64,000 bases of DNA from an uncultured Gammaproteobacteria bacterium (GCA_964634875.1 CAZWKA010000001.1:101600-165599), one strand, 5' to 3'. Shown: positions 23,179 through 51,392, counted from the stretch's first letter. Numbers and translations are program-made. The notes: generated by a model not told the origin, from the sequence alone.

Positions 23179-23307
23179 TTTTAGATCCAAGTATTACAAA
23201 CCACCCTTCTTTGGAAGGGTGGTTTTGTTTTTGGTTGAGACCTCGATTATCTTGACGAATGGGGTAAAAAGTGGTAGTAAATCGTCGATAGTGGAGGCAG
23301 GAAAACC

Positions 23308-23907
23308 ATGCAACGACGAAGTTTGCTTCGGGTTCTCGGGCTGACTGCTCTAGGTGTGCTGTCCGGTTGTAGCCTCTTGAGCCGCAGAGACGATGATCTG
23401 CCAACTGGCAACGGCTCGTATGTGGATACCAAGACGGGCTGGGTTAAGCGTCCTGACGGGACCATGACCGACGATATCGACGTGTACAACGGGGCGCTCG
23501 ATGAGATCTGCCAGGAGCACTTCAAACGCTCTCGGGTCATCCCCGCCATGCTCGGCTCGCTACGGTTCAATTTCATCGAGTCGGACTTTAAGTGCCCCAA
23601 GTGTAAGGTGGGGATGCTGGAAGCCAAGCCCCTTGAAGATGAGTTTATCCCGCCGGAGCCGGGGGATAAGAGCGGTGGCAGGGGTTTCTTTCAGGTCTAT
23701 GGCTATTGTGATCAGTGCGGGGAACGCTCGCCGGTAAAAGGCGCCGTTGTTCCTGCGCCCGCGCTCGCCATGGTCTATGAGGAGGAAGCCTCGGGTCTCG
23801 TGATCCCGGTGCCGATTGGTGGGTGGCTTGCGCCCCGCTTCTCTGGTATCCGGCTGCCGTCATTGCCGCCGCTGCGCGTCCCTCTGGAGCCAGTGTTCGT
23901 ACCCTAG
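23308..23907 (+). CDS. GC-rich lipoprotein with C4 zinc-ribbon-like motif
   Basis: 199 aa. Signal peptide and lipobox LSGCS. CPKCKVG ...(x37)... CDQCGE. Upstream promoter TATCTTGACG + 17 + TAGTAA (23252-23280). High GC3. Confidence 0.55.
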   Translation: MQRRSLLRVLGLTALGVLSGCSLLSRRDDDLPTGNGSYVDTKTGWVKRPDGTMTDDIDVYNGALDEICQEHFKRSRVIPAMLGSLRFNFIESDFKCPKCKVGMLEAKPLEDEFIPPEPGDKSGGRGFFQVYGYCDQCGERSPVKGAVVPAPALAMVYEEEASGLVIPVPIGGWLAPRFSGIRLPSLPPLRVPLEPVFVP

Positions 23908-24099
23908 CACCTCTGCGAAGAGGTTCTCTTTCACACCATAATTCCCGCCCACAGCCGACCTCACCGTCGGCTCAATAAAAAACCACTCAATCTCAATTGG
24001 GTGGTTTTTTATTCCTATCTTGACAAAACCCTGTTTTTCGGGTAGCGTAAAAAAGTCCCAATTGAGGCTTCAAACGATCGTCATAGGAGGTCGTCCCCC

Positions 24100-24384
24100 A
24101 TGAGTACTGCCAGTAAGAACGTTCGTACCGAGCATGATTTTGATGATGAAATCACTGATCCTGAGTTCGATGGGCGGCTCAGTGATCTGGATCTGCAGTT
24201 GTTCCAGGCCGCGACCACCTCAGTCGGGCCGCGACCCACGTCTGAAGTGCCCCCGATCCACACGGGCTCTCTGCGTACCGTGGGTTCGGGTCAGCATGGC
24301 AGCGCGAATGCCGGCCGTGTTGACTATCGGCCGCCTTCGGACAACGTTCCGGCCATCATTCCCCCGCAGAAGCGAAGGGGCTGA
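24100..24384 (+). CDS. hypothetical small protein (GC-rich)
   Basis: 94 aa. Preceded by CTATCTTGACA + 17 + TAGCGT (24019-24047) and SD AGGAGG. Acidic N-terminus and Pro-rich C-terminus. Confidence 0.35.
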   Translation: MSTASKNVRTEHDFDDEITDPEFDGRLSDLDLQLFQAATTSVGPRPTSEVPPIHTGSLRTVGSGQHGSANAGRVDYRPPSDNVPAIIPPQKRRG

Positions 24385-24675
24385 GACCTTTTTTGCCGGG
24401 GAACCCGTCTAGCTACTCTTTTGCCCTACCGAGGGATGGTATCCTTGTGGTTGTGCAGAGCAGTTTAGACGCGTTCCTCGGTTCTTCTTCATCTTATTTC
24501 TTAATGCCCTAAAAAGGGTATTTTTTTATTTTTAATAATATTTTTTGGCTAAAAATATGAGTTTTAAAGTTCCCCACACCCCTATCTATTGACAGGTAGG
24601 AGGTGTCGTGCTAGGGTGATTTTGCCAATCTTCTTTTGATCCTTCCCGTCCTCAACAGCGTTCAGGAGGTCACTC

Positions 24676-24834
24676 GTGAAGAAGTCCCGCATCTGCAGCA
24701 AGTATTCGATTCTCGGCGGCACGTCCATCATCGACTACGACAGCGGCGAGGCCTGCACCGGCGGCGTCCAGCACGGCCAGCGCAGCGGCAACTCGCGCGC
24801 CGGCGGCGCGGGCGACGGCCTCCACGCCAAGTAA
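24676..24834 (+). CDS. candidate 52-aa Gly/Ser/Cys-rich peptide (GTG start) with strong SD and dedicated promoter
   Basis: AGGAGG (24664-24669), then GTG at 24676. Product MKKSRICSKYSILGGTSIIDYDSGEACTGGVQHGQRSGNSRAGGAGDGLHAK. Nearly every codon ends in G/C. Upstream CTATCTATTGACA + 17 + TAGGGT (24583-24617). Absent from the ORF track (shorter than 60 aa). Confidence 0.35.
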   Translation: MKKSRICSKYSILGGTSIIDYDSGEACTGGVQHGQRSGNSRAGGAGDGLHAK

Positions 24835-25110
24835 GGCGCGGCGGCCACGGTTCGGGGGCTCCAACCAGTAAGTAAGCAGGCGCGGCAGCCAGCGGCGTGA
24901 CAGCGATGTCACACCCCGCGGGCGCGGCGCCGGCAACTTCTGGAAGGAGCCCCCGGGCCCTTCCTTTCTTAAAACATGAATACCTGACCACAGGTGTTTT
25001 TTTATTTATACAGGCCAAAGCGCTTTATTTGTGGGTAGTTTGACCAAACGGGTAAAGCGTTTTATAATGGCAAGTAATGGAGATTTGCTTCTTTTCTGCT
25101 TTAGACAATT

Positions 25111-25539
25111 ATGAAAAATAACCAAATAAACCGCGTTATCAATTTGGTTCGTAAAACTGGCGACCGCGTCGTCGTCATGGACCAGGAAACCGAAGAAGTG
25201 CTGGTCATGATGCGTCTTGATGAATATGAGAATCTCATGGATTTTGCTTTGCCTGGTGGAGAAAGTGGGCCTATGCCTGACTTTGAATCTTGGGATCATG
25301 AAGCCGAAGGAATGGTCGCTGGAGACGAATCAGATGAGCAGTCGTTTGACCTGGCCGACCACGCTGCTGAATTGAAATCGCGGGAAGCCGTCGCCCCAGT
25401 GGCAGCGGTGAACGAAAAAAAGCTTGAGTTTAGTGAAGATTGGGAGAAGCCGGTGTCTACCAATGTACCCGAAGAAGACTTGTCAGATGTGCCGGAAGAC
25501 GAAGAAGAGCCGCGTTTTTACCTGGAACCGGTCGAGTAA
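25111..25539 (+). CDS. acidic hypothetical protein
   Basis: 142 aa, very acidic (D/E-rich C-terminal half). Native AT-rich codon usage. Confidence 0.4.
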   Translation: MKNNQINRVINLVRKTGDRVVVMDQETEEVLVMMRLDEYENLMDFALPGGESGPMPDFESWDHEAEGMVAGDESDEQSFDLADHAAELKSREAVAPVAAVNEKKLEFSEDWEKPVSTNVPEEDLSDVPEDEEEPRFYLEPVE

Positions 25540-25776
25540 AGCATTAAAGCCTTGGAAAAACAGGGGTTTGTCCACATCCCTCGCTCTTGCCAAGGCTTTT
25601 TTTATTTGCTATAGTGTCGCCACGTGTGTGAAGGCCTCTTTTTAGGCGTTTTTTGCGCGTAGTGATGCCTTGAACACAAAAAGTACTCAACTATTTTATT
25701 AAAAATTAGTAGCAGCGGCTGGACATAAAGCTGAAGCGACCACTCGCCAAAGCGCCGCGTAAAGTTTTTTAATCAT

Positions 25777-26967
25777 ATGGCCGATTTCGTCCGAAATAAG
25801 CCACACGTCAACATTGGTACCATTGGTCACGTCGACCACGGTAAAACTACGACCACCGCAGCCATCCTCAAGGTTTTGACTGCTCATGGTCAGACTGCTC
25901 AGAACAAAGGTGTCGATGATTTGGATAAAGCCCCAGAGTCAAAAGCTCGTGGTATTACCATTTCAACTGCTCACGTTGAATACGAAACTGCCGCTCGTCA
26001 TTACGCTCACGTTGACTGTCCAGGTCACGCTGACTACGTAAAAAATATGATTACTGGTGCCGCCCAGATGGACGGTGCTATCCTCGTTGTTTCCGCAGCT
26101 GACGGCCCAATGCCTCAGACTCGTGAACATATCCTTTTGGCTTCTCAGGTAGGTGTAAAACATATTGTTGTTTACCTCAATAAAGTTGACATGGTTCAAG
26201 ATAAGGAACTTGTTGACCTCGTTGAAGAAGAAGTCCGCGACCTTCTCAAGAAATACAAATACCCAGGCGACACCGTACCGGTTATCCGCGGTTCTTCGAT
26301 GAAGGCCCTCGAAAATCCAACCGATGAAGCTGCTGCCAAACCAATTCTCGACCTCATGAAAGCGGTTGATGAATATATCCCAGACCCAGTCCGCGCCACC
26401 GATCTTCCTTTCCTTATGCCGGTTGAAGATGTCTTCTCTATTGAAGGCCGTGGTACTGTTGTTACTGGTCGTATCGAACGCGGTGTTATCCACGTTAACG
26501 ACGAAGTTGCTATCGTTGGTTTGAAAGAAGATGTTGTTAAGACTGTTGTTACTGGTATTGAAATGTTCAACAAAAGCCTCAAAGATGGACAAGCTGGTGA
26601 CAACGCCGGTCTCCTTCTTCGCGGTACCAAGAAAGAAGATGTTGAACGCGGTATGGTGCTTGCTAAACCAGGTTCCGTTACTCCGCACACTGAATACGAA
26701 GCTGAAGTTTATATCCTTACCAAAGAAGAAGGTGGACGTCACAAACCTTTCTTCAAGGGTTACAAGCCTCAGTTCTATATCCGCACTACTGACGTTACTG
26801 GTGAAATCGAACTTCCAGCTGGCACCGAAATGGTTATGCCTGGAGACACCATTAGTATCGTTGTAAAACTTATCGCCCCAGTTGCGCTCGAAGAGAAGAT
26901 GAACTTCGCTATTCGCGAAGGTGGTCGTACCGTCGGTGCTGGTGTGGTAACTAAGATTCTTAAATAA
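25777..26967 (+). CDS. tuf: elongation factor Tu
   Basis: 396 aa. [21 protein letters not shown], and a typical EF-Tu C-terminus. Confidence 0.97.
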
Positions 26968-27043
26968 TAAGCGAAGGGTCGTCCCGACACATGTCGGGAC
27001 GACCCCTTTTGCTTTGTTCATTCAGTTCTTTATCTTGCGTAAC

Positions 27044-27385
27044 ATGACCGCTACAAGCAAAACTGTACAGAAAGATGAGGGTATTAGCCGTATTCGCATC
27101 AAAATCCGCGCATACGACAACCGCATTATTGATCAGGCCACCAAGACGATCGTCGAAACCGCCGAACGCCACGAAGCCAAGGTAATTGGTCCAGTACCGC
27201 TCCCAACGGAGAAAACCAAGTTTACCGTTAACCGTTCTACGTTCGTCCACAAAGACGCTCGTGAGCAGTATGAAATGCGTGTGCATAAGCGTTTGATCGA
27301 CATTATCAATGCTAGTCCGAAATGCGTTGATGCCCTTATGGGTCTCAGCCTTCCCGCTGGTGTCGATATCGAAATCAAGATGTAA
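27044..27385 (+). CDS. rpsJ: 30S ribosomal protein S10
   Basis: Start set at ATG 27044 ([25 protein letters not shown]...). The track ORF begins 10 codons earlier. Confidence 0.9.
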
Positions 27386-27463
27386 ATCGTCCAAAGTGTA
27401 GCGGCCCTACCGAGTAAAAGAGTAGGGCCCGCAAAATAAGGTAAAATTTCGTTTTCCACAGCC

Positions 27464-27736
27464 TTGACAAGCCGTTCTAAATGCGGTAAGCTGGTGGAAG
27501 TTAAAAAAAGAGCCCTCGCTCAACTTAATAAGATCCCTGCAGTTAGCCAAGAAAATGGGAAAACATTAAGAAGAAACAATGGCTCACGAGGAGTAAAAAC
27601 TTGAAAATACCAAACCAAGCCATTTCCTAGAAAATCGCGCTCTGGTACTGTATATTCGCGAGACTTTAGAAAGGCTAGAAGCACTGTATGCTATCAACTC
27701 AATTGTTGATTGCGTCCTGGTGCTTCTAGTTTTTTG
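27464..27736 (+). ncRNA. candidate non-coding transcript between rpsJ and rplC (promoter to intrinsic terminator, no ORF)
   Basis: TTGACA (27464-27469) + 17 + TAAGCT (27487-27492). About 240 nt without an ORF longer than 6 codons. Strong terminator CTAGAAGCAC ... GTGCTTCTAG + TTTTTTG (27675-27736). An upstream hairpin GGCCCTAC/GTAGGGCC (27403-27430) follows the rpsJ stop. Confidence 0.35.
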
Positions 27737-27817
27737 TTAAAATGACAAAAATAAGAAGCACTACAACAAAGTTAGTCACGAATTGTTTTCAATAAGTTAC
27801 CAATGTTGCACACGTAT

Positions 27818-28531
27818 ATGAAATTCATTCTCGGCAAAAAGATGGGCATGACCCAGGTTTTCTTAAAGAGTGGTGAGGTTGTACCGGTTACTAAAGTTGT
27901 TGCTGGCCCGTGTCAGGTGGTCCAGGTCAAACAAGACCAAAAGAACGCCACGACAGCGCTTCAGTTAGGTTTTGGTGAAAAGAAAGAATGGCGTCTAGCA
28001 AAACCAGAAGCAGGACATTTGAAGGGTTTAGCTCCCGTCAGTGAACTCCGAGATTTTGTATCTGACCAAGCAGGCATTGACCGCGGTGACGTCGTTACTG
28101 TGGAAACATTTGTTCCAGGTGATCTGTTAAATGTTGTTGGAACTTCCAAAGGTAAAGGTTTTGCCGGTGTTGTAAAACGCCATCATTTCCGTGGTGGTCC
28201 AGCATCCCATGGTCACAAAGATAACCTTCGCGCCCCTGGTTCCATTGGTGCTGGTGGTGTGCAACGTGTTTTTAAAGGTATGCGCATGGCTGGACGTATG
28301 GGTGGCGAACGTGTCACGGTTAAAAATTTGGAAGTTGTGGAAGTACATCCAGAAACAAATGAACTGTATATCAAAGGCGCTGTTCCGGGTGGCCGCAATG
28401 GCCTGCTCCTTTTGAGCGCTCTGGGTGAATTGAAAGTTACCAAGAAAAATGCTCCAGCCGCTCCAGTCGAAGCTGCTCAAACTGAAACCGCTCCTGTTTC
28501 CGAACCAGCGGTAGAAGCACAAGCAAGCTAA
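27818..28531 (+). CDS. rplC: 50S ribosomal protein L3
   Basis: Start at ATG 27818 (MKFILGKKMGMTQVF...). Confidence 0.93.
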   Translation: MKFILGKKMGMTQVFLKSGEVVPVTKVVAGPCQVVQVKQDQKNATTALQLGFGEKKEWRLAKPEAGHLKGLAPVSELRDFVSDQAGIDRGDVVTVETFVPGDLLNVVGTSKGKGFAGVVKRHHFRGGPASHGHKDNLRAPGSIGAGGVQRVFKGMRMAGRMGGERVTVKNLEVVEVHPETNELYIKGAVPGGRNGLLLLSALGELKVTKKNAPAAPVEAAQTETAPVSEPAVEAQAS

Positions 28532-28551
28532 ACTTACCCGTTACAAGTTAC

Positions 28552-29187
28552 ATGCATATGAAAGCAAAAGTCTACAATCTTTCAGGTAAAGAAACCGGAG
28601 ACATGGAACTCCCGGAAGATATTTTCAACATTGCCGTTAAACCAGAAGTAGTGCACGAAGTTTTTGTTGCCCAAATGAACAACCAGCGTGAATCTTGGGC
28701 AGATACCAAGAATCGCGGTGAAGTTCGCGGTGGTGGTAAAAAACCATGGGCACAGAAAGGTACTGGCCGTGCTCGTCACGGTTCGATCCGTTCCCCGATC
28801 TGGAAGGGCGGTGGCGTAACCTTTGGTCCATTATCTATTAGAAATTATAAAACAAAAATTAATAAAAAGACCCGTCGTTTGGCAACCCGCATGTGTCTTA
28901 GCGACAAAGTCCAAAGTGGTGCACTCTTGATCGTGGAGAACTTTACTTTTGCTGAATCAAAAACCAAACTGATGGCTGCGGCTCTCAAAGCCCTTCCAAC
29001 CAAGCAAAAATCATTCTTGATTGTATCGGCTGCTAACGATGAAGCGCTTATCAAAATTTCCCGGAATGTCCCGCGCGTTAAGAACCAGGTTGCGACCGAC
29101 TTATCAGTCATGGATCTTCTACAGAGCCAGGCTGTCGTGATCACCAAAGAAGCCGTTGAAAAAATTGTCGCCACCTTACAAAAATAA
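28552..29187 (+). CDS. rplD: 50S ribosomal protein L4
   Basis: 211 aa. KNRGEVRGGGKKPWAQKGTGRARHGSIRSP. Confidence 0.93.
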   Translation: MHMKAKVYNLSGKETGDMELPEDIFNIAVKPEVVHEVFVAQMNNQRESWADTKNRGEVRGGGKKPWAQKGTGRARHGSIRSPIWKGGGVTFGPLSIRNYKTKINKKTRRLATRMCLSDKVQSGALLIVENFTFAESKTKLMAAALKALPTKQKSFLIVSAANDEALIKISRNVPRVKNQVATDLSVMDLLQSQAVVITKEAVEKIVATLQK

Positions 29188-29211
29188 TCTACTTACCTTA
29201 GACAGCAGTAT

Positions 29212-29652: not shown

Positions 29653-29666
29653 TTCTCACCCCCTGT

Positions 29667-30509: not shown

Positions 30510-30536
30510 CTATATCCACTTTAAAGTTACTACTGT

Positions 30537-30857
30537 ATGTCTAGAAGTCTTAAAAAAGGTCCTTACATCGATCCACGGGTCGTCAAAAAAGTGACGGCAC
30601 TCAAGGATAGCGGCAAACGCACGCCAATTAAAACTTGGTCCCGCGCTTGTGTTATTACACCAGAAATGGTCGGCGTTACCTTTTTAGTACATAACGGTAA
30701 GGACTTTCTGACAGTATTGGTTGAAGAAAATATGGTTGGACATCGCCTTGGTGAAATGGCGCCAACGCGCAAGTTTATTCGCCATGGTGGTAAGATGGCT
30801 AAGGAAGAAGCTGGCAAATCAGCTGCTCCAGCCGCCCCCGCTGCTAAAAAGAAATAA
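30537..30857 (+). CDS. rpsS: 30S ribosomal protein S19 with Lys/Ala-rich C-terminal tail
   Basis: [11 protein letters not shown] ... HNGKDF ... [13 protein letters not shown], with tail [18 protein letters not shown]. Confidence 0.93.
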
Positions 30858-30860
30858 TCT

Positions 30861-32073: not shown

Positions 32074-32104
32074 CCTTTGATATTACGAATTTGGATTTTG
32101 AGAT

Positions 32105-32521
32105 ATGCTTTTACCTAAAAAAGTACAACACCGCAAATGGCATAAAGGCCGCCGTCGCCAAAAAGGCGTCGCTACTCGTGCTAACAACCTCAGTTTCGGG
32201 GACTTCGGTCTCAAGAGCGAGAGTTATGGCTGGGTAACGAGCCGCCAAATTGAAGCGGTCCGCCGTGTTTTGACGCGCTATGTCCGCCGCGGTGGCAAGA
32301 TCTGGATTCGTGTATTCCCAGATAAACCAGTTACCAAAAAAGGTAATGAAACCCCGATGGGTGGTGGTAAAGGTGCTCCGGATCATTATGTAGCCGTCGT
32401 AAAACCTGGTACCATGCTATTTGAGATGGTTGGTGTAACTCCGGAAGCAGCGAAAGAAGCGATGCACCTGGCCGGTTACAAATTTGGGTTAAAGACCAGA
32501 TTTATTGAAAAACAAAAATAA
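32105..32521 (+). CDS. rplP: 50S ribosomal protein L16
   Basis: 138 aa. [23 protein letters not shown]. Confidence 0.96.
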
Positions 32522-32527
32522 AATCGT

Positions 32528-36552: not shown

Positions 36553-36664
36553 GTCATTGCGAGCAAAGCGCAGCAATCCCCTGGATTAAGTACTGGCTAT
36601 TTAAAAAGTATTTCTAAAACCGAGGGGATTGCCACGTCGGTCGTGCCTCCCTCCTCGCAATGAC
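36553..36664. repeat. palindromic intergenic repeat, family A copy 3, at the position where rpmD (L30) is normally found
   Basis: Arms GTCATTGCGAGCAAAGCGCAGCAATCCCCTGG and GAGGGGATTGCCACGTCGGTCGTGCCTCCCTCCTCGCAATGAC. The reverse complement of the right arm nearly matches the left arm of copy 1 at 10147. Confidence 0.7.
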
Positions 36665-36672
36665 AAATTAAT

Positions 36673-39398: not shown

Positions 39399-39475
39399 TA
39401 AGCAGAGTAGGCAGAGTAAGTACTAAGTAAAATTTGTACCTACACTGCTTAGAACTTACTCTGCCTATCTTGCTT
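39399..39475. repeat. intergenic palindrome (AAGCAGAGTAGGCAGAGTAAGT ... ACTTACTCTGCCTATCTTGCTT)
   Basis: Roughly 22-bp inverted arms between adk and map. Shares an AGTAAGTA-type core with family B and the (AGTACTT)n array. Confidence 0.55.
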
Positions 39476-39489: not shown

Positions 39490-40314
39490 ATGTTAATCAA
39501 GAGTAAAAAAGAAATCGCCCTCATCGCTGAAGGCGGAAAATTAATGGGTGAAATCTTGAGCGAGCTCAAAGTGTTGTGTAAGCCAGGCATGTCAACGCAT
39601 ACCATTGATCTTCTGGCTGAGAAAAAAATTCTCGCCGTTGGCGGCAAACCGGCTTTTAAAGGCTACACCACTCACGCCACTGACATTCCGTTTCCGGGAA
39701 CGATTTGTGCTTCGGTGAACACCGATCTTGTTCATGCTATTCCCCGTAAAGATGTCATCCTCAAAGATGGTGATATTTTTACGATTGATATTGGTATGGA
39801 ATACCCAGCGGGAAACAGTAAGCGCGGCCGCGGTTTTTTTACCGATACAGCAATTACTTTTTCAATTGGCGAGATTCCCCCCAAGACCAAAGAATTGCTC
39901 CGGGTTACCAAAGAAGCGCTTGAAGTTGGAATGCGGGCGGCAAAGCCTGGTAACAGTGTTGCGAGTATTGGTAAAGCAGTTGAATCGTATGTAAAAAGCC
40001 AGGGTACGTATGGTGTGGTGCGTGATTTGGTTGGGCATGGTGTTGGTCACGAAGTTCACGAGCAGCCGAATATTCCAAACTATTATGACCCGGGGTTGGA
40101 GTCAATTATCTTGAAGCCGGGTATGGTGATTGCTATCGAACCAATGATCTCGATCAGTAAAGAGCATCGGGTAGTAGCCAAGCCCGATGGTTGGACGATC
40201 GCTATGCGCGACAATGCGCTCTCGGCTCATTTTGAGCACACACTTGTGATTACCGCGAAGGGGAATGAGGTGGTGACGAGACGGCCGGGGGAGAGTAAAG
40301 AGGTACTTTGGTAA
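39490..40314 (+). CDS. map: methionine aminopeptidase type I
   Basis: 274 aa. Pita-bread fold with metal ligands in DIGMEY, VGHGVGHEVHE and IEPMIS. Confidence 0.93.
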   Translation: MLIKSKKEIALIAEGGKLMGEILSELKVLCKPGMSTHTIDLLAEKKILAVGGKPAFKGYTTHATDIPFPGTICASVNTDLVHAIPRKDVILKDGDIFTIDIGMEYPAGNSKRGRGFFTDTAITFSIGEIPPKTKELLRVTKEALEVGMRAAKPGNSVASIGKAVESYVKSQGTYGVVRDLVGHGVGHEVHEQPNIPNYYDPGLESIILKPGMVIAIEPMISISKEHRVVAKPDGWTIAMRDNALSAHFEHTLVITAKGNEVVTRRPGESKEVLW

Positions 40315-40316
40315 AT

Positions 40317-40766
40317 GCCAAAATCCTAATTTCAAATGACAAATAAAATGTCAAAGGCTCAAAATCAAAAGTATGATTTGGAAGAGCGAACCGCACAGTT
40401 TGGGGAAGAAGTAATCCGCTTTCTTCAGAAACTAAATAAAGATATAGTTACGTCTCCTTTAATTAGTCAACTTGTTAGATCGGCTACGAGCATTGGTGCT
40501 AATTATTGTGAGGCGGATTGTGCGGAATCAAGAAAAGATTTTGAATATAAAATAGGAATTTGTAAAAAAGAGTCTAAAGAAACAAAGTATTGGTTTAGAA
40601 TGCTGGCGACAGCTTTGCCTCAAGAAAAAGAAAAATGCCGTGAGCTCTGGAAAGAATGCAATGAATTTAACTTGATATTTTCAGCGATTATCAGAAACTC
40701 TCGTAAAAATAAAAATTAGAGCTTGGGATTTTTGTTTGACATTTGAAATTAGGATTTTGACATTTC
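40317..40766 (+). mobile_element. IVS-like cassette: four-helix-bundle ORF bracketed by ~24-bp inverted repeats (AAAATCCTAATTTCAAATGACAAA / TTTGACATTTGAAATTAGGATTTT)
   Basis: The left repeat (40317-40344) overlaps the ORF start. The right repeat (40731-40766) lies just past the stop. 23 of 24 positions are complementary. A related empty repeat pair is at 54277-54326. Confidence 0.5.
40336..40719 (+). CDS. four-helix-bundle protein (23S rRNA intervening-sequence protein family, TIGR02436-like)
   Basis: 127 aa. QLVRSATSIGANYCEA matches the family signature (xLxRSAxSIxxNIAEG). K/E-rich helical composition. Confidence 0.7.
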   Translation: MTNKMSKAQNQKYDLEERTAQFGEEVIRFLQKLNKDIVTSPLISQLVRSATSIGANYCEADCAESRKDFEYKIGICKKESKETKYWFRMLATALPQEKEKCRELWKECNEFNLIFSAIIRNSRKNKN

Positions 40767-42464: not shown

Positions 42465-42642
42465 TCTCGGAACAACTGCAGCTTCCTTTTGACCTGGAGC
42501 CGACACTGTCGGCTCCAGTACTGTTTAAAATTAGCCGCTGACATTTTGGGAATAGTCATTAGTCGATATAGTTTCGTATAATGACTGGTTCTAAGGCGCA
42601 TGTGCTGCGTTGTCGAAGCCAGGGTTTTTATCGGAGGGAATC

Positions 42643-43263: not shown

Positions 43264-43433
43264 GACAGTTCACGATATCTTCGTCCTAATTAGAGAGCCG
43301 ACAAACGTCGGCTCTCATATTGTTTTTGTATTAAAAAAACCACGTTAACAGCGTGGAAGATGGAAGTGTTGGATTAAGTTCTCCCGCCCCAAGAAAGTGT
43401 TGGGACGGGAGAACTTATGGGTGAAAGGAGCGC

Positions 43434-44420: not shown

Positions 44421-44574
44421 CTCTATTTTCCATTTATTTTTTATGCAGTGGGTATATAAAAATAAAAACAGCCTTTTGAAAAAGCTGTTTTTAAGGGAGG
44501 CCGACGGTGGTATCAGCAGGAGTCAGCCGTTTGAATGAGCGTTGTTAGGTGTGTGGTTCTTGGTCTCTTGGGTG

Positions 44575-45123
44575 CTACTCGCATCCCCACGACGTGTCGC
44601 CTTGCCACCCGGCGAAGCGGGTGTCGTCCGTGTCGCCCCGCACCTCCTGGGTGGGCGGCTCCTTCGGCTCGTTGCAGGTGAAGCGGCATTCGGCCTCAAT
44701 GTGCACATCCGGCTTCGTGAACATGTGCATGTCGCGCCGCTCACCAGTCTTCTTGTTGACGGCGACGGCGCTCGAAATCATCTGGGGGTGGGTAGTGAGC
44801 TTGTAGGCGGTCGCGCCCTCGCAGAACGGGATCGGATTCGGGTTGCAGAGGGCGTAGAAGGTTCCTGCTGGCGATCGTGAGATCTCGAGGATGTAGACCT
44901 TCTGATCCTTGTTCGGGGCGGGCGGCACATTGCAGGCGAAGCTCTTGCCGCCGTCATTGTTCGCTAGCACCACCTCCGGCTCAGAAGACCCCTCCAGGAA
45001 GGCTGAGTTCGTAGTATCGAGTGGGTGCTCCGTCGCCACGACTGCTTCTCGCTGCAAGACCGGCGCGGCGCATGCGCCCGCCATCAACGCTGACACTGCC
45101 ATCCAATTACGCATGCTGGTCAT
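44575..45123 (-). CDS. GC-rich secreted Cys-containing hypothetical protein
   Basis: 182 aa. Signal peptide MTSMRNWMAVSALMAGACAAPVLQ. Six further Cys. A minus-strand CTATCTTGACA motif lies upstream at about 45188-45201. Confidence 0.5.
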   Translation of the reverse strand: MTSMRNWMAVSALMAGACAAPVLQREAVVATEHPLDTTNSAFLEGSSEPEVVLANNDGGKSFACNVPPAPNKDQKVYILEISRSPAGTFYALCNPNPIPFCEGATAYKLTTHPQMISSAVAVNKKTGERRDMHMFTKPDVHIEAECRFTCNEPKEPPTQEVRGDTDDTRFAGWQGDTSWGCE

Positions 45124-45271
45124 GAACGTACCTCCTTGAGTGCGCTGGGCGGTGTGCCCAGCGCAGGAAGTATACTTAACACATTTTTAGAGAATGTCAA
45201 GATAGTTCACAGATAATTTTCCACTTGCCTTTTTGGCTAAAAAGGGCTACGCTAAGCCAGTGCTATGTTAC

Positions 45272-45308
45272 AAGTACTTAGTACTTAGTACTTAGTACTT
45301 GGTACTTA
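45272..45308. repeat. tandem heptamer array (AGTACTT)x5, each unit containing the palindromic hexamer AGTACT
   Basis: AGTACTTAGTACTTAGTACTTAGTACTTGGTACTTAC, about 25 nt upstream of asnS. Confidence 0.7.
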
Positions 45309-45332
45309 CAACTTACTACTCGTTTTAACCGT

Positions 45333-46631
45333 ATGTCCTCAATCTGCCTTTCCAAAAATCTCCACGAACACATCGGTGAAGAAGTCGTTATTCGCGGTTG
45401 GCTTTATAATAAACGTTCCAGCGGTTCGATCGCTTTTTTGGAAGTCCGTGATGGTTTTGGTTGGGTGTCGGCCGTCGCTTCTAAAAGCGCAGTGCCCGAG
45501 AGTGTCTGGGACGCTATTGAAAAACTGACCCAGGAATCCTCGCTCACGCTGAAGGGTTTGGTTAAAGTGCACCCGAAGCGTGCTAATGAGTATGAGGTTG
45601 AGGTGCGAGATGTTGAGATCATCCAGCTCGCTACCGAATATCCAATTGCCAAGAAAGAACATGGCCCGGATTTTTTGATGGAGAACCGCCACTTGTGGCT
45701 CCGGAGTAAACAACAGTGGGCAATTTTGCGTGTGCGCGACGCCATTATTATGGCCATCAACGAATATCTACATCAGGAAAATTTTATCAAAGCCGATAGC
45801 CCGATTTTTACACCCAATGCCTGCGAAGGGACGACGACTCTTTTTGCTGTACCGTATTTTGATTTAGGCACGGCCTATTTATCCCAATCTGGGCAGTTGT
45901 ATATCGAAGCAGCGATTGCCTCGGTGGGGCGCTGTTATGATTTTGGTCCAGTTTTTCGAGCGGAAAAAAGTAAAACCAAACGTCATCTCACTGAATTTTG
46001 GATGATGGATGCCGAAGGTGCCTTTGTTGAACATGAAGAAAATTTGCAAATTCAAGAAGGATTGGTGCGCCATATCGTGCGTTATTGTTTGGAACACTGT
46101 AAACAAGAGTTGGCTATTTTGGAACGCGACACTGCCAAGCTCGCACAGGCTGACGCACCGTTCACGCGCTACACGTATGACCAGGCGATTGTAAAATTAA
46201 ACGAACTTGGGTCTGATATTAAATATGGTGAAGACTTGGGCAACGATGATGAGGGGCTTTTGACCAAAGACAGTGTGGTGCCGGTCTTTATCGAAAAATG
46301 GCCCAAGGGTATTAAGCCGTTTTATATGAAACGCGACCCGAGTAACCCCGAACTAGTCCTGAATGATGACCTGATTGCGACCGATGGTGGGGGAGAGTTG
46401 ATTGGGGGGTCACAGCGTGAAGAAGATGTTGACGTGCTCATTGAACGTATTAAGCACGAAGGGCTCAACATGGAAGATTATGAATGGTACCTCGACCTGC
46501 GTCGCTATGGCAGCGTCCCACATTCTGGCTTTGGCATCGGCCTCGAGCGGGCGGTGCGCTGGATTACGGGTGTCGAGCATATTCGGGAGTGTATTCCGTT
46601 CCCACGGACGATTGGCCGTTTAAAACCATAA
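45333..46631 (+). CDS. asnS: asparaginyl-tRNA synthetase (class IIb)
   Basis: 432 aa. N-terminal OB anticodon-binding domain. Class II motifs FRAE and GGSQRE. C-terminal GLERAVRW and FPRTIGRLKP. The length fits AsnRS rather than AspRS. Confidence 0.85.
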   Translation: MSSICLSKNLHEHIGEEVVIRGWLYNKRSSGSIAFLEVRDGFGWVSAVASKSAVPESVWDAIEKLTQESSLTLKGLVKVHPKRANEYEVEVRDVEIIQLATEYPIAKKEHGPDFLMENRHLWLRSKQQWAILRVRDAIIMAINEYLHQENFIKADSPIFTPNACEGTTTLFAVPYFDLGTAYLSQSGQLYIEAAIASVGRCYDFGPVFRAEKSKTKRHLTEFWMMDAEGAFVEHEENLQIQEGLVRHIVRYCLEHCKQELAILERDTAKLAQADAPFTRYTYDQAIVKLNELGSDIKYGEDLGNDDEGLLTKDSVVPVFIEKWPKGIKPFYMKRDPSNPELVLNDDLIATDGGGELIGGSQREEDVDVLIERIKHEGLNMEDYEWYLDLRRYGSVPHSGFGIGLERAVRWITGVEHIRECIPFPRTIGRLKP

Positions 46632-46890
46632 AATTGATAAGCAAAAAAATCCCTCTAAAAAAGGGATTTTTTTGCTTAGTATAGCCAAAAAAACACGTGG
46701 ATAACTAGGGGCGAGTCTATCTTGACAACAGTCCGGTTTTGTGCTAGGGTCAGTAGTACTCGATTTTGAGTATAGCTTTTTGAAAAATAAGGCCTTGAGG
46801 ATGGGTACGAGCTTATTTAGCTATAAATAGGCTGCTATCCCGCCTCGAGACCTTCAACGTTCCAGTCTATCAACGTTCCAGTCCATAGGA

Positions 46891-47934
46891 GTGCAAGTCA
46901 TGAAGAACTCTCGTTTCCCGAACGTCCTCGTCCTCGCCCTGGGGCTGCTCGCCCTGGGTGCGAACTCGGCCAGCGCCGAGGAGCACTTCACTGGCCCCTA
47001 CCAGGACGTCACGCGCGCCGTCGTGCCCGACAAGCCCGCCGCCCCCAACTACAAGGAGATGGGCGAGAGCCTGTCGTCCTGCACGCCGCTCTACGGCGAC
47101 GCCGAGTGCCGCAAGCGCCTCGGCCTGCCCGCCTCGGCCGCCCCCGTCCCCGCCGCGCCGTCCGCCACCCAGAAGCCCACCGCCCCCGGCACCAAGGTCG
47201 TGAACAACAACCGCGTCGTCGCCGGCGGCAGCAAGTCCGTCGGCTCGGCGGCCCGCGCCACGGGCCTCAGCGAGGCCATCAGCGGCCGCGGGATCTTGGG
47301 CAGGGGCGGCAAGTACTTCGGGTTCGGCATCTACGTGCCCATCACCATGCTCCGCGGCTACGATGGCTTCGACGCCCGCCAGGCGCCGGTGCTCGGCGGC
47401 CTCGGACTCATCCTGCGCGGCGAGATGTTCAGCATGCTCGGCCTGCCCATCGGCTGGCAGATCTACGGCGGCTGGGAGAAGGGGTCAGTGCTGACGGTGC
47501 GCCAGGTCGACCTCGCCAAGGGCGAGATCAACGAGGCCTCCGGCGGCAACAACGCCGACCATCTCACCATCGGTGCTGCCCCGACCATCGGCCTGGGCCC
47601 GTTCAAGGCCTTCCTCGGCTACGCCTACCGCTACCGCCTCTCCAGCGCGACCGGCCCCAGCGATGACAAGCTCGTCGTCGTTCCCTCGGCGTCCGGGCAC
47701 GCCTTCGAGATCGGTGGCCGTGCTGACCTGTTCGGCGGCAGCGTCTCCATCTCCGCCCTGGTCGTGCCGGGCTGGGGGGAGACCTTCTACCCCGACTCCA
47801 AGGATCACCCCGGCGCGCTGAAGCTCAACCTGCCGAGCCTCGGCGACCGCATGTTCCCGGGCAAAGCGGGAGATCTCGTCCAGACGAACGAGAGGCTGAT
47901 CCTCCTCCAGCTCAGGATCGCCTTCTTCGGCTAG
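46891..47934 (+). CDS. very GC-rich secreted Ala/Pro/Gly-rich protein
   Basis: 347 aa. Signal peptide MKNSRFPNVLVLALGLLALGANSASA. PAAPxAT linker, Gly-rich C-terminal domain. GC3 is near-saturated. Upstream CTATCTTGACA + 17 + TAGGGT (46714-46750). Confidence 0.55.
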   Translation: MQVMKNSRFPNVLVLALGLLALGANSASAEEHFTGPYQDVTRAVVPDKPAAPNYKEMGESLSSCTPLYGDAECRKRLGLPASAAPVPAAPSATQKPTAPGTKVVNNNRVVAGGSKSVGSAARATGLSEAISGRGILGRGGKYFGFGIYVPITMLRGYDGFDARQAPVLGGLGLILRGEMFSMLGLPIGWQIYGGWEKGSVLTVRQVDLAKGEINEASGGNNADHLTIGAAPTIGLGPFKAFLGYAYRYRLSSATGPSDDKLVVVPSASGHAFEIGGRADLFGGSVSISALVVPGWGETFYPDSKDHPGALKLNLPSLGDRMFPGKAGDLVQTNERLILLQLRIAFFG

Positions 47935-48070
47935 ACTGCCGCTATCCACACCCATCCCCGCCGCCGGCGCACCACTCGTCTTCCAAGACTTGAGTGGTGC
48001 GCCGCGGCTCTCCAATTAAATTTCTAAGGTTCCTTAGAGGTTTTGAGGAGAGAGAAACTTCTTAAAAAAA

Positions 48071-48101
48071 GCCTGTCACCAATTGGTGGACAGGCTTTTT
48101 T
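48071..48101 (+). terminator. intrinsic terminator
   Basis: GCCTGTCACC AATT GGTGGACAGGC followed by TTTTTTA. Confidence 0.55.
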
Positions 48102-48184
48102 ATAAGCATTGACAACTTGGCTTAAATATGGTACCCCATAAGCTTCCCTGGTCAAAATAACCTTTTTCACCTAAAGGGGTGAAC

Positions 48185-48829
48185 ATGTACTTTGTCAGAC
48201 GTTGTGCTCGTTTTCTCGTGGTCGCTGTGGCTCTGGTTCCGTTGTTTAGTATTGCGGGTTGTAACTTCCTGCGCTGGAACAGCGGAGGGAGCCAAGGGGA
48301 CAAGCCGACCGGGAGCGACACGGTTGGTAGCAGCGGCTGTGAAGGCCGTGAGTTCTGTGATGACACCACCGGCGACACAGAGGCCCAGGCAGCCTGTAAA
48401 GCCTACCGCACGTGTCTTGCAGTAACAGCTGTCGACGATCCGATGGGCTTGGGTGTGACCAAAAGCCCTGGGATTTCTGAGCCTGCTGGTACTGCCGCGG
48501 GTGCCAATTGCAATGCGGTTAAAGAGTGTCCCAAAAGTCCGACAGGCAACCACGTGTTCCGGCCAGACGATCCGCCTGAGTTTACCTATGAGGTAGACGA
48601 TGACGGTAGTTGCACCAGGACCAAGATGTTCCACTGCATCTATTGTGGTACTACCTACTCACATGCCGCGCCTCCTGAGCAGGTCACCTTGTCGGACATG
48701 CTGCGCGACCATGAGGCGGCTCTGCGACAGCAGAGCCCTGCAGCAGGGCATATCGCTTCGGTCATGCAGACTGCTGAGATGGTCGCCCGGCGACTGAAGT
48801 TGCCTGGGGTTTGTTCGCCAAGCCGCTAG
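48185..48829 (+). CDS. GC-rich lipoprotein, paralog pair 1 member a
   Basis: ATG 48185 follows SD AAAGGGG. Lipobox IAGCN. Shares CEGREFCDDT, AACKAYRTCLAVTAVDDP, CNAVKECPKSPTGNHVF and CIYCGTTY with 48957-49703. Confidence 0.6.
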   Translation: MYFVRRCARFLVVAVALVPLFSIAGCNFLRWNSGGSQGDKPTGSDTVGSSGCEGREFCDDTTGDTEAQAACKAYRTCLAVTAVDDPMGLGVTKSPGISEPAGTAAGANCNAVKECPKSPTGNHVFRPDDPPEFTYEVDDDGSCTRTKMFHCIYCGTTYSHAAPPEQVTLSDMLRDHEAALRQQSPAAGHIASVMQTAEMVARRLKLPGVCSPSR

Positions 48830-48956
48830 ACAGCATCCTCATTCTTTTCCATCCAACCTATCGTAGCGGCCAGTAGCGCCGCTCTTCTGTGCCACGCATG
48901 AGCAGTTCGTGCTGGGCAGCGAAGAATAGACATTTTAAAAAATGGAGGGAGCCAAG

Positions 48957-49703
48957 ATGATTCGAAGACACTCGCGTTACTTCGACCGTTGCGCGCCAGG
49001 CGTCCTTGGTTTGGCACTTGTCCTTTTTGGCGGTTGCAACTTTATCGGCAAGCTCGGAGGCGCCTCCGGAGACAAAGGGGGTGCCGAAGCGCCGGCTGCG
49101 AATCTGCGCTGTGAGGGACGGGAGTTCTGCGACGACACCAGCACCGACCCCGAAGCGCGCGACGCCGCGAAAGCCGCGTGTGAAGCGTACCAGAAGTGTC
49201 TTGCTACTGTTGCCGTTGACGATCCACAGAACTTGGGTGCGGCAATGAACCGTGGTGGTTCATTAGGTTCAGGGCCTGCTGATGAGGCTCGGTGTGATGC
49301 GGTTCAAGAATGTCCGCATAGTCCAACTGGTAATCATATCTTCAAGGGTGAAACGCCGCCCAAGTACATGTATACCGTCGACAAAGATGGCGCCTGCTGG
49401 AAGCAGGAAAAGATGGATTGCTCCGTGTGCGGCACGACCTACTGTGGCTATGCGCCGAAAATCAAAATCGGCCACAACGAGCTCCGACGTTCTCGCGCGG
49501 AAGCCTTCCAGAAAAGCAATGATGCCAACGCCGCCTACCAGCGAGCAATGGCGGATGGTGTGACTGGGGACGCCTTATTCGCGTTCCAGTGGACGGCTGA
49601 GGTTGCACGGCAGTACTACACCGTTTTATTCGGCGCTTACGACACCGCCGAGACGTTTGCGATTGATCACGACAAGCCGTTTCCCTGTGCACCCATGGAG
49701 TAG
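48957..49703 (+). CDS. GC-rich lipoprotein, paralog pair 1 member b
   Basis: ATG 48957 follows SD GGAGGGA. Lipobox LFGGCN. CEGREFCDDT, AACEAYQKCLATVAVDDP, CDAVQECPHSPTGNHIF and CSVCGTTYCGY are conserved with 48185-48829. Confidence 0.6.
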   Translation: MIRRHSRYFDRCAPGVLGLALVLFGGCNFIGKLGGASGDKGGAEAPAANLRCEGREFCDDTSTDPEARDAAKAACEAYQKCLATVAVDDPQNLGAAMNRGGSLGSGPADEARCDAVQECPHSPTGNHIFKGETPPKYMYTVDKDGACWKQEKMDCSVCGTTYCGYAPKIKIGHNELRRSRAEAFQKSNDANAAYQRAMADGVTGDALFAFQWTAEVARQYYTVLFGAYDTAETFAIDHDKPFPCAPME

Positions 49704-49866
49704 TTCCTTCATCGATTCGTCCTGCTCAGGTGGTTGTTGAGCGGGTCGTAACCCTGCCGTTCTTACAACGGCTTTCTCATTCATAGTCTAAGTTTTTAGC
49801 TTGGAAGATGAGTCCAGAAAAAGCAGTTCGTTAAGACAATCAAAACCCAACAGCGAGGTGAATGTT

Positions 49867-50499
49867 ATGCCTATTCGTTCTTCAGCTTTGCTCTTCACGA
49901 TGCTGCTGGCAGGCTGTACCTGGTTGACCCAGAAGAATCCACAGCTGGAAGGCCAGTCCAACGGGTTGACCGGCCTGGTGGCTGGCGCCATTGCCGATAC
50001 CTTGATTGAAGGCCTGTCGCCATCGTGTACAGACACCGGAGCTTGCCAGGAAGATCCGAACGGGCAGCTGTGCAAGGAGTATCGCCAGTGTTTGCAGGCA
50101 GAGATTGACGGCTCGAAAACCGGTTTGGCTGCTGGCCCCATGCGCGGCGGCCGTCGCCGGGGCAAAGTTGCAGCGATCACTCCCGAAGGCGAAGCTTGTG
50201 ATACCGACACGTCCTGCCCGCATACCATGTTCAAACCCGGCACGCGAACGGTTAAAGTTTGGGTCGAGCCGCGCATACTTGGTAGTGGCGGAACCTATGG
50301 CCGGTGCTGGCAACAGGTTACGGCTATCTGCGCTGCGTGCGATCAGCCCGTTGGCTCCCCGCCAACTCCGGCTTCGGTTGAAGAAATCAAGAAGCTCAGC
50401 CAGATCATGTTTCCGGGTGACATCTGGAACGAAATTTTTATGGCGATGGTCAACCAAGGGGGTTGTTGGGACGAGCCCTGGGTTCCGGCTTTCCAGTAG
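49867..50499 (+). CDS. GC-rich lipoprotein, paralog pair 2 member a
   Basis: ATG 49867 follows SD GAGGTG. Lipobox LLAGCT. LIEGLSPSCTDTGACQEDPNGQLCKEYRQCLQAEIDG is paralogous to the N-terminus of the next ORF. Confidence 0.6.
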   Translation: MPIRSSALLFTMLLAGCTWLTQKNPQLEGQSNGLTGLVAGAIADTLIEGLSPSCTDTGACQEDPNGQLCKEYRQCLQAEIDGSKTGLAAGPMRGGRRRGKVAAITPEGEACDTDTSCPHTMFKPGTRTVKVWVEPRILGSGGTYGRCWQQVTAICAACDQPVGSPPTPASVEEIKKLSQIMFPGDIWNEIFMAMVNQGGCWDEPWVPAFQ

Positions 50500-50609
50500 C
50501 CCTGCCCCCCCACAAAAGCGGCCGAACAGGGTTCGGCCGCGCCCTTCAGTACTGTTCGCAAGTTTTACTTGCGCCCAGTAGTGAGTGACACCAATCCACG
50601 AGGTGCAAC

Positions 50610-51164
50610 ATGGTCAAAGTAGGAGTATGTTACAAGCCCACACTTGTCTTGATGTTGTTGTTGGGTGGTTGTAAGTGGTTAGTTACTCCAACAAATCCCG
50701 AGCTTGCCAATGCTGGCGGGGGTAGTTTTGGAGGCTTTGTTGGCGGTTTGATTGAAAAAGGTTTGCAGCCAACCTGTCAGCGACCCGAATCTTGCGATAG
50801 CGACCCTGATAGCCAAGAGTGCCGTGACTACCGCCAGTGCGTGGTGGATGAAATCAGGAATGGCGGTGGTTCTGCTGAGTCGTCGGGTAGTGGGGGATCA
50901 GATCCCGCTGCTCCCGGAGCTGCCTGTGGCACCGATGTCACGGACTCCCCGCCAGAAGACGAAGCGGAGGAGAAGGAAAAGGCTCGCTGTCCGGTTTGCG
51001 GAGGTCCGATGAAGCGTAAGTCGCGACCGATGGTCGTAGACTTTGGTGCAAATCCCTACCGCATGTGGCAGTACCAGTGCACGAACCGAGGTGTTTCGCG
51101 CGGCGGGCAGTTCGGTCACGGCGACTTTTCCGGTCGACGCTGGCCGCTCAAGCCCGCCGAGTAG
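50610..51164 (+). CDS. GC-rich lipoprotein, paralog pair 2 member b, with C4 zinc-ribbon-like motif
   Basis: SD GAGGTG. Lipobox LLGGCK. LIEKGLQPTCQRPESCDSDPDSQECRDYRQCVVDEIRNG. CPVCGG ... CTNRG. Followed by a hairpin at 51192-51221. Confidence 0.6.
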   Translation: MVKVGVCYKPTLVLMLLLGGCKWLVTPTNPELANAGGGSFGGFVGGLIEKGLQPTCQRPESCDSDPDSQECRDYRQCVVDEIRNGGGSAESSGSGGSDPAAPGAACGTDVTDSPPEDEAEEKEKARCPVCGGPMKRKSRPMVVDFGANPYRMWQYQCTNRGVSRGGQFGHGDFSGRRWPLKPAE

Positions 51165-51392
51165 CACCATCCCCATCCCTGCCTTGACAAGCCAACGTTG
51201 ATCGCATCTGCGATCCGTTGGCTGCTTATCCTGCACGCTAGTAAGTTGGCGTACGGGATAAAAAGAAAATCACTCGGAAACGAGTGATTTTCTTTTTCTA
51301 AGGCATTAAGGCCTATCTTGACGATAGTCGGTTTTCGTGATACCACGTTCTGTACAATCATTTTTGCCCTTGGGGGCAGGAGAAGAAATCCA

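Follow-up and report, generated by a model that had tools for sequence, protein, structure and literature searches.

Six putative promoters that precede GC-rich genes share a short upstream extension, CTATC, in a stretch of 64,000 nucleotides (nt) recorded under an uncultured Gammaproteobacteria bacterium (GCA_964634875.1 CAZWKA010000001.1:101600-165599; this whole 64-kb stretch is called the window hereafter, and the motif and promoter scans cover it). They are probably primary-sigma promoters of autonomous GC-rich cassettes, in which CTA(TC) would constitute a lineage-specific tuning addition. The bulk of the motif reads as an ordinary sigma-70/sigma-A promoter with an extended -10, and its sole non-generic part appears to be (C/T)TA at about -41 to -39. 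A preliminary description of this DNA had argued from the motif that the GC-rich genes form one co-regulated set, driven from promoters that the cell recognises, and are not assembly contamination. Our data were in agreement with the last two points, but a single co-regulated set was not established, since the TATC extension occurs at 6 of about 14 cassette promoters and the remainder of the motif is generic sigma-70 consensus.

Six putative promoters with a common upstream extension

The motif was found at each of the places where it had been described. TATCTTGAC has five exact matches for 0.44 expected, a number reached by none of 100 shuffled sequences, and CTATCTTGAC, when up to one mismatch is allowed, has nine for 2.45 expected, which was likewise reached in 0 of 100 shuffles. 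Exact copies of CTATCTTGAC lie at 24015-24024(+), 46717-46726(+), 51313-51322(+) and 45196-45205(-); positions 23247-23256(+) read TTATCTTGAC, and 24582-24593(+) read CTATCTATTGAC, which carries a 2-nt insertion. Five sites have TATCTTGAC exactly, as compared with CTATCTATTGACA at the sixth. Among the 86 TTGAC(A/G) sites of the window, TATC stands directly 5' of the -35 only at these. All six are intergenic, correctly oriented and located 28-150 nt 5' of a GC-rich open reading frame (ORF) provided with a Shine-Dalgarno sequence, and four of the six products are exported proteins. Their composition is given below.

Promoter A, 23247-23280, plus strand: TTATC, TTGACG (23252-23257), 17 nt ending in TGg, TAGTAA (23275-23280); TATCTTGAC exact; directly behind the fusA terminator hairpin
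Target of A, 23308-23907, plus strand: lipoprotein gene, GC 0.60, 199 residues, lipobox LSGC, no Pfam match
Promoter B, 24015-24048, plus strand: CTATC, TTGACA (24020-24025), 17 nt, TAGCGT (24043-24048); precedes a 94-residue ORF, 24100-24384
Promoter C, 24582-24617, plus strand: CTATCTA, TTGACA (24589-24594), 17 nt ending in TGc, TAGGGT (24612-24617)
Target of C, 24676-24834, plus strand: ORF of a 52-residue peptide
Promoter D, 46717-46750, plus strand: CTATC, TTGACA (46722-46727), 17 nt ending in TGc, TAGGGT (46745-46750)
Target of D, 46900-47934, plus strand: gene of a 344-residue secreted protein behind a 150-nt leader, GC 0.70, GC at third codon positions (GC3) 0.94
Promoter E, 51313-51346, plus strand: CTATC, TTGACG (51318-51323), 17 nt ending in TGa, TACCAC (51341-51346, final T absent)
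Target of E, 51393-51908, plus strand: lipoprotein gene
Promoter F, 45173-45205, minus strand: CTATC (45205-45201), TTGACA (45200-45195), 16 nt ending in TGt, TAAGTA (45178-45173)
Target of F, 44575-45123, minus strand: lipoprotein gene within a 791-bp cassette absent from the related locus L084

Promoter F had previously been placed at 45188-45201; its actual span is 45173-45205, with a spacer of 16 nt. The -10 assigned to promoter E is uncertain, the alternative TACAAT at 51353-51358 being too distant from the -35. As for the TAGGGT-like -10 that had been proposed for the whole group, it holds for two of the six hexamers (24612-24617 and 46745-46750), whereas the others read TAGCGT, TAGTAA, TAAGTA and TACCAC. 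A third GTGCTAGGGT promoter was found outside the range considered earlier, with GAGTC in place of CTATC, and the GTGCTAGGGT -10 is therefore not tied to the extension.

Extension-free cassette promoter, 18243-18271, minus strand: GAGTC, TTGACA, 17 nt (TGc), TAGGGT
Its target, 17758-18147, minus strand: GC-rich ORF of a membrane protein

The repeat family D4 of the window is 34 nt long, with 65-74% identity, and does not amount to the long, highly similar blocks that a mobile or reused promoter would leave 5' of unrelated genes.

A generic promoter core

Twenty-four promoters of the window were curated by hand, 14 belonging to cassettes and 10 to the backbone. The arrangement TCTTGACA, 17-nt spacer, TGn and TAnnnT is that of a primary-sigma promoter with an extended -10. 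The six sites all have TTGAC(A/G) and spacers of 16-17 nt, and three of their -10 hexamers fit TAnnnT; TGn is present in five of them, in 9 of the 14 cassette promoters and in about 60% of the promoters of relatives. The TTGACA-17-TAnnnT core also occurs 5' of tRNA-Asn, tRNA-Leu, rpsL, rpsJ and topA in the window, in support of the view that the promoters are of a type recognised by the host. In Escherichia coli, the consensus is already tcTTGACat, so that TC 5' of TTGACA is classical, and the '-16 region' of Gram-positive bacteria is TRTG, with which the TGTG found here 5' of the -10 is in keeping.

In a set of 52 promoters from relatives, the profile combines TTGACAaa with a run of A/T around -22 to -18, a T and a G at positions -15/-14 and a TAnnnT hexamer, and it is the same whether the downstream gene is GC-rich or normal. 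The sharing of spacer and -10 thus corresponds to a lineage-wide architecture. Two pairs of sites had been singled out for a common spacer and -10. The spacer features in question, an A/T run followed by TGTGC, are not particular to them: spacer similarity within the CTATC group was 0.40, compared with 0.37 for promoters generally (permutation p = 0.27).

Distribution and origin of the extension

Three features distinguished cassette from backbone promoters, with the reservation that the p values are uncorrected and come from small hand-curated sets: the TATC extension (6/14 vs 0/10, p = 0.024), TGn (9/14 vs 1/10, p = 0.013) and a -10 starting with TAG (6/14 vs 0/10, p = 0.024).

Comparison with the related locus L085, whose nucleotide identity with the window is 87.5% in fusA and 84% in the tuf region, was informative as to how the extension arose. 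Its fusA-tuf slot has the same scaffold as the window, starting with the terminator AAAAACCAC...GTGGTTTTTT and continuing with promoter P2, a terminator, promoter P3 and a final terminator. P2, the orthologue of promoter B, keeps TTGACAAAA...GGTAGCGT and has AAGCG in place of CTATC; P3, the orthologue of promoter C, keeps CCACAC...TTGACA...AGGGTG and has GTAGGGC in place of CTATCTA. Since P2 and P3 are otherwise conserved, the extension was either gained in the lineage of the window or lost in that of L085, in both cases by small local changes, and copying of whole promoters cannot account for sites B and C. Neutral drift towards one pentamer in several promoters is very unlikely, and a change in place at two otherwise conserved promoters argues for lineage-specific selection.

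The extension was not found in L085 P2 and P3, in the promoters of the related locus L083 or in 48 Magasanikbacteria loci; the L083 homologue of the 344-residue protein gene is preceded by AATCA TTGACA ... TAAGGGT, CTATC being absent. In 80 related loci, matches to TATCTTGAC were at chance level and mostly inside coding sequence.

The preliminary description had suggested an additional regulator or a UP-like element at CTATC. This reading receives some support from the enrichment in cassette promoters and from the L085 orthologues that lack the extension; it is weakened by the small size of the shared sequence (3-5 nt beyond the core), which is not A/T-rich, has no repeat or palindrome partner and is absent from relatives. 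Between -42 and -60 the six sites have nothing in common, and no consistent palindrome or second half-site was found across them. A CTATC...GATAG arrangement is confined to 51313; a direct repeat is confined to 45205(-), where TTATCTGTGAA/CTATCTTGACA form an 11-nt repeat in the style of response-regulator boxes. One of three properties expected of a transcription-factor operator was observed, namely a motif at a fixed position above chance, whereas size and structure, and conservation in relatives, did not correspond to such an operator. A half-site for a lineage-specific regulator at CTATC is nevertheless possible.

Another recurring word, TTTTGGCTA(AAA), has five matches in the window for 1.06 expected, four of them near cassette promoters. 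It was rejected as a second upstream motif, its orientation and spacing being inconsistent and its occurrence non-significant when one mismatch is allowed. A near-palindrome, TTTTTGGCTAAAAA/TTTTTAGCCAAAAA, is also present near cassette promoters (18285-18300, 24538-24556, 45226-45246 and 46678-46696), with varying orientation and promoter distance; the copy at 45226-45246, which L084 also has in conserved form, fills the space between the -35 and the -10 of the putative asnS promoter.

GC-rich genes and their genomic context

The backbone of the window comprises, in order, rpsL-rpsG-fusA-tuf, the S10 and spc operons, secY-adk-map-ruvX-recO, asnS, a metallophosphatase gene, parAB, relA/spoT and topA, with a GC content of about 0.46. 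The nearest AsnS proteins (at most 81% identical) belong to metagenome-assembled genomes (MAGs) of Candidatus Magasanikbacteria and Patescibacteria, which share this gene order. The window is part of a Magasanikbacteria-like chromosome, from the candidate phyla radiation (CPR, or Patescibacteria). About 19 ORFs have a GC content of 0.55-0.70, with GC3 up to 0.94, and encode mostly Cys-rich lipoproteins. They are confined to gaps between conserved transcription units, i.e. upstream of rpsL and in the slots fusA|tuf, recO|asnS, asnS|metallophosphatase and relA|topA. The same gaps in relatives are either empty or contain 0.5-8 kb, which is also GC-richer than the host genome. Approximately ten of the GC-rich ORFs have lipoboxes or signal peptides and four encode membrane proteins; the Cys content reaches 3.4% in the GC-rich proteins versus 0.8% in backbone proteins, and two paralogue families have conserved Cys patterns. 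An island of such genes, detailed below, lies behind asnS.

GC-rich island, 46900-51908, plus strand: between asnS and the metallophosphatase gene; 344-residue secreted protein and lipoproteins
Four paralogous Cys-rich lipoprotein genes, 48185-48829, 48957-49703, 49867-50499 and 50610-51164, plus strand: promoter at 48109
171-residue lipoprotein gene, 51393-51908, plus strand: end of the island

Logan contigs L001, L206 and L207 (SRR12762304), produced by a different assembler, match the window with 100% identity across the places where GC-rich DNA joins the backbone. They include the fusA end and three cassettes, asnS and the 344-residue protein gene, and the block of five lipoproteins together with the metallophosphatase gene, L206 spanning the 46900-51908 island plus a backbone junction. 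Additionally, three other MAGs from other projects have GC-rich inserts, some of them homologous, in the same syntenic slots. Contamination was therefore dismissed, as a second assembler reproduces the junctions and the slots are syntenic with those of other MAGs. The GC-rich genes are genuine, as their Shine-Dalgarno sequences, lipoboxes and Cys-conserving paralogues also show.

Homologues of these genes proved extremely scarce. No Pfam domain was detected in the GC-rich proteins, save a sub-threshold match to FA_hydroxylase. A search among 1.84 billion representatives gave a single true homologue of the 344-residue protein (37% identical), in a syntenic Magasanikbacteria island, and among 5.8 billion clusters there was one homologue of the 311-residue protein (53% identical) and none of the lipoprotein family outside this genome. 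A search of viral contigs gave no relatives of the GC-rich proteins, and a metagenome scan for the conserved asnS-promoter block, in which close relatives were sought, gave no match. The homologues that do exist were found only in related MAGs, are 26-53% identical and are still GC-rich. In L083, the island that follows asnS has one homologue each of the 344-residue protein gene and the 48957 family, as well as three homologues (28-37% identical) of the 23308 lipoprotein, which is located between fusA and tuf in the window; their GC content is 0.62-0.68, against about 0.49 for the backbone. Loci L003 and L020 have a homologue of the 311-residue protein gene (26-28% identical) upstream of asnS. 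This confinement to related MAGs points to native, lineage-restricted and fast-evolving families with persistent GC-richness. A recent transfer from sampled high-GC bacteria or phages was rejected, given that the 1.84 billion representatives and 5.8 billion clusters searched gave homologues only in related MAGs and that the viral contigs gave no relatives. Adenine mutagenesis of the type known from diversity-generating retroelements was also rejected as the cause of GC-richness, because A and T are about equally frequent on the sense strand.

The 344-residue protein has a signal peptide and ends in FFG. Its structural model (predicted local distance difference test score 41) was too low in confidence for a fold search and gave a weak hint of eight long beta-strands, which might recall a small beta-barrel, unexpected in a bacterium thought to be devoid of an outer membrane. 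Among the shorter products, a GC-rich ORF at 18596-18787 encodes a 63-residue peptide with the motif SCCAACCGPS and a hydrophobic tail, and the 52-residue peptide (24676-24834) and its 33-residue L085 counterpart have the common pattern I.D.YD..G..AC..G. The 63- and 52-residue peptides may be secreted or modified.

Cassette organisation

Each cassette is organised as promoter, Shine-Dalgarno sequence, ORF, GC-rich 3' hairpin and AT-rich intrinsic terminator. The promoter DNA is AT-rich like that of the host (GC 0.40 at -120 to -61), and the 3' segment of about 60 nt has a GC content of 0.59 and a hairpin without a T-tract. A GCCGAC...GTCGGC stem was found three times in the window for 0.03 expected (23954-23971, 42499-42513 and 43297-43312), in each case 34-47 nt past the stop codon of a GC-rich ORF.

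3' hairpin GCCGACCTCACCGTCGGC, 23954-23971, plus strand: behind the lipoprotein gene 23308-23907

Matching hairpins exist in relatives (L083, 11995-12013 and 14917-14935; L005, 15135-15152). As the GCCGACCTCACCGTCGGC hairpin is near-identical, loop included, behind the 37%-identical L083 homologue, it is better conserved than the protein. A metagenome scan for GCCGACCTCACC(N)GTCGGC hairpins gave at least 120 matches, almost all of them in high-GC genomes (median GC 0.68) and without cassette context.

In the fusA-tuf slot (window 23181-24957, L085 2064-3938), terminators and promoters are conserved, while the ORFs are unalignable and GC-rich in both (0.58-0.69); what the ORFs of this slot preserve is composition and not sequence.

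One cassette could be compared with a corresponding empty site.

791-bp cassette, 44425-45223, minus strand: promoter F, 182-residue lipoprotein gene, GC-rich hairpin, intrinsic terminator

Copies of an 8-bp direct repeat, TGGAAAAT, enclose this cassette at 45223-45216 and 44432-44425. In the empty site, L084 (956 nt), bases 3-39 match window positions 45254-45218 (35/37, asnS-promoter block) and run straight into the TTGCAA...TATACT promoter of the 53%-identical homologue of the 311-residue protein gene. The repeat could represent a target-site duplication or the trace of a microhomology deletion.

Several leaders have features of their own. That of the GC-rich gene 57226-57756(-) has a perfect 25-bp hairpin at 57806-57862, and long leaders with structure or repeats are also present at 18380-18595 and 46751-46899 (TCAACGTTCCAGTC occurring twice). 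In the relA|topA insertion, a unit at 56854-57115 has a perfect TTGACA-17-TATACT promoter with TGc and, about 230 nt further on, a strong terminator; no convincing ORF lies between them, and the unit may encode a small RNA. Comparison of the long leaders and of this unit with Rfam gave no relevant match at the gathering threshold or at E <= 0.5.

Preferred explanation and alternatives

RNA polymerase carrying a primary sigma factor of the sigma-70/sigma-A type would start transcription at the six sites. The layout read by sigma would be TCTTGAC(A/G), a spacer of 16-17 nt usually ending in TGn, and a TAnnnT-like -10, the weakness of the G-rich -10s being presumably compensated by the perfect -35 and TGn. 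Each promoter would drive its own small GC-rich gene as a self-contained cassette, and the cassettes occupy variable slots between the conserved operons of a Magasanikbacteria-like chromosome and encode lineage-restricted, fast-evolving proteins, mostly Cys-rich lipoproteins along with secreted and membrane proteins. The (C/T)TA at about -41 to -39 would have evolved in place by small changes and not by means of a mobile promoter. Its most likely role would be to tune the promoters, by offering either the polymerase an upstream contact or a lineage-specific factor a half-site; roughly half of the cassette promoters apparently manage without it.

Several observations weigh against this explanation. 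The promoters are predicted from sequence, and half of the six -10s (TAGTAA, TAAGTA and TACCAC) lack the final T that is normally critical. With 64 kb scanned, small hand-curated lists and uncorrected p values, the three enrichment tests are suggestive; taken jointly, the enrichment in TATC, TGn and TAG could also betray a separate sigma factor or regulator. Finally, the CTATC-bearing 791-bp indel with its 8-bp repeats implies that the promoter at least sometimes travels with the gene. The best explanation and its rivals partly overlap.

A dedicated regulon is the strongest of these rivals, although it is unlikely on present evidence. CTATC, with or without TGn-TAGGGT, would then be recognised by an activator, a repressor or an alternative factor of the sigma-70 family that is specific to the lineage and would turn some of the GC-rich surface-protein cassettes on or off as a group. 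The fixed position of the extension in six promoters and its absence from all ten backbone promoters would be expected in such a case, as would the exported nature of four of the six products, the TGn and TAG-type -10s shared by cassette promoters as a class and the 11-nt direct repeat at 45205(-). The otherwise conserved L085 orthologues of two promoters can also be read as selection in the window lineage, or as decay after loss of the factor in the other. However, only 3-5 bases are informative beyond the generic core, without a consistent palindrome or second half-site in the six sites, and eight other cassette promoters lack the extension, including that at 18271(-) with an identical -10. 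Furthermore, no relative examined conserves it, and no candidate regulator gene was identified in the window.

Common descent is a somewhat weaker contender and is considered rather improbable. The promoters would in this case be copies of one ancestral promoter, which would have spread along with cassettes that moved or were duplicated, or would itself have been mobile, and the shared bases would be the residue of this origin and serve no function. Promoter propagation and reuse are documented in prokaryotes (PMC3575422), and certain features of the window are reminiscent of them: the 182-residue protein cassette and its CTATC promoter form a discrete indel relative to L084, tandem paralogues are present, cassette families change slots, as illustrated by the 23308 homologues in the asnS island of L083, and the spacers at 46717 and 51313 are unusually similar (ACAGTCCGGTTTTGTG vs ATAGTC-GGTTTTCGTG). 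Nevertheless, the similarity ends about 5 nt upstream of the -35, and the spacers and transcribed starts of the group resemble one another no more closely than do those of unrelated promoters. Promoters B and C are orthologous with those of L085 in terminator, spacer and -10 and differ exactly at the extension, so that replacement by a copy did not take place there. A microhomology-mediated deletion in the L084 lineage would account equally well for the 8-bp repeat.

An artefact, in which the GC-rich segments would result from chimeric assembly or contamination and the motif would be a by-product, is suggested by the abrupt GC shifts (0.46 to 0.55-0.70) and the few or absent homologues, but it can be practically discarded, being refuted by the junction-spanning Logan contigs and by synteny with three MAGs from other projects, and since host-type promoters, Shine-Dalgarno sequences and terminators abut every GC-rich ORF.

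Other elements of the window

Two 36-nt inverted repeats (40313-40348 and 40730-40765), 92% complementary and with the core AAATCCTAATTTCAAATGTCAAA, flank a low-GC (0.34) ORF at 40336-40719 with a Pfam match to 23S_rRNA_IVP. This ORF is inserted between map and ruvX, which are neighbours in relatives. Elements of this kind were also noted at 54271-54336 and 32076-32106, with a solo palindromic copy situated between parA and parB; they look like miniature inverted-repeat transposable elements. A 50-nt element, TTTGTCATTGCGAGGAGTGAGG...GGCAATCCCCTCGTTT, occurs at 10144-10193 and 36618-36667 in opposite orientation (90% complementary), one copy being situated between rpsE and rplO, the expected place of the ribosomal protein L30 gene. 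Intergenic spacers at 20433-20512, 21008-21090, 39400-39475, 45260-45320 and 56760-56790 consist of stop-codon-rich repeats of the GTAAACAGTAAGCAGTAAA type, which form hairpins; near-identical copies are located behind rpsL and behind rpsG.

Significance

Promoters of the CPR/Patescibacteria have hardly been described, and none was found to have been mapped experimentally in this lineage; a literature search on CPR promoters or on GC-rich orphan genes in the CPR gave nothing directly relevant. The window provides a clear sequence-level picture of the promoters of the lineage, in which TTGACA is followed by an A/T run, TGn and TAnnnT. It further indicates that the GC-rich genes are genuine parts of the genome with individual predicted promoters, encoding mostly lipoproteins and secreted proteins known from this lineage only. 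The organism is thought to live attached to other cells, and these proteins are candidates for its cell-surface interface. CTATC, should it prove regulatory, would open a way into the gene regulation of an uncultivated phylum.

The more surprising result lies outside the promoter, in the conserved scaffolds and 3' hairpin that surround hyper-divergent, GC-rich, lineage-unique ORFs. Such regulatory scaffolds around unalignable and persistently GC-rich ORFs constitute an unexplained evolutionary signal. It is conceivable, though we regard it as a long shot, that CTATC, TGn and the G-rich -10 define a lineage-specific promoter class that places the hypervariable GC-rich surface-protein cassettes of one episymbiotic CPR bacterium, held in conserved 'expression scaffolds', under common control. 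This would imply a dedicated process of ORF replacement or diversification, or selection on base composition itself, and neither ordinary drift nor transfer from known donors.

Comparison with known systems

The closest resemblance is to sigma-70/sigma-A promoters with an extended -10, with which the sites have in common TTGACA, the 17-nt spacer, TG two bases 5' of TAnnnT, TC before the -35 and an intergenic location 5' of a Shine-Dalgarno sequence and ORF. They differ from them by their G-rich -10s (TAGGGT, TAGCGT), by the three -10s without a final T and, in a subset, by the extra CTA at -41 to -39. UP elements, contacted by the C-terminal domain of the polymerase alpha subunit (proximal subsite at -46 to -38), similarly lie directly 5' of the -35 and could raise promoter strength without a separate regulator. 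They are, however, A/T tracts that reach about -57, whereas CTATC is short and of mixed composition, and none of the six sites has the UP consensus AAAWWTWTTTTnnAAAA or AAAAAARNR between -38 and -59. Class II activator sites overlapping the -35, such as OmpR/PhoB-type boxes or that of Mor at -43.5, are comparable by their fixed position abutting the -35 and their presence at several promoters of functionally related genes, here those of exported proteins; known sites have 14-22 nt and two half-sites, in contrast with the approximately 5 nt shared here and absent from relatives.

Mobile or reused promoters (PMC3575422) also place a similar promoter before non-homologous genes, and one cassette of the window is a discrete indel, but they consist of long and highly similar blocks, whereas identity is here limited to about 11 nt plus generic features. 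The similarity is too short for a mobile promoter in that sense. Replacement-type flexible genomic islands and integron-like cassette arrays share with the cassettes the fixed slots between core genes, the small genes that differ between species and the hairpin behind each ORF. Integrons are, however, defined by attC sites, an integrase and promoterless, co-oriented ORFs behind the promoter Pc; no integrase and no attC was found in the window, the cassettes having 15-19 nt GCCGAC hairpins only. The cassettes described here are self-promoted, self-terminated and of mixed orientation, and their slots are scattered over the chromosome, with inserts that are consistently GC-richer than the host.

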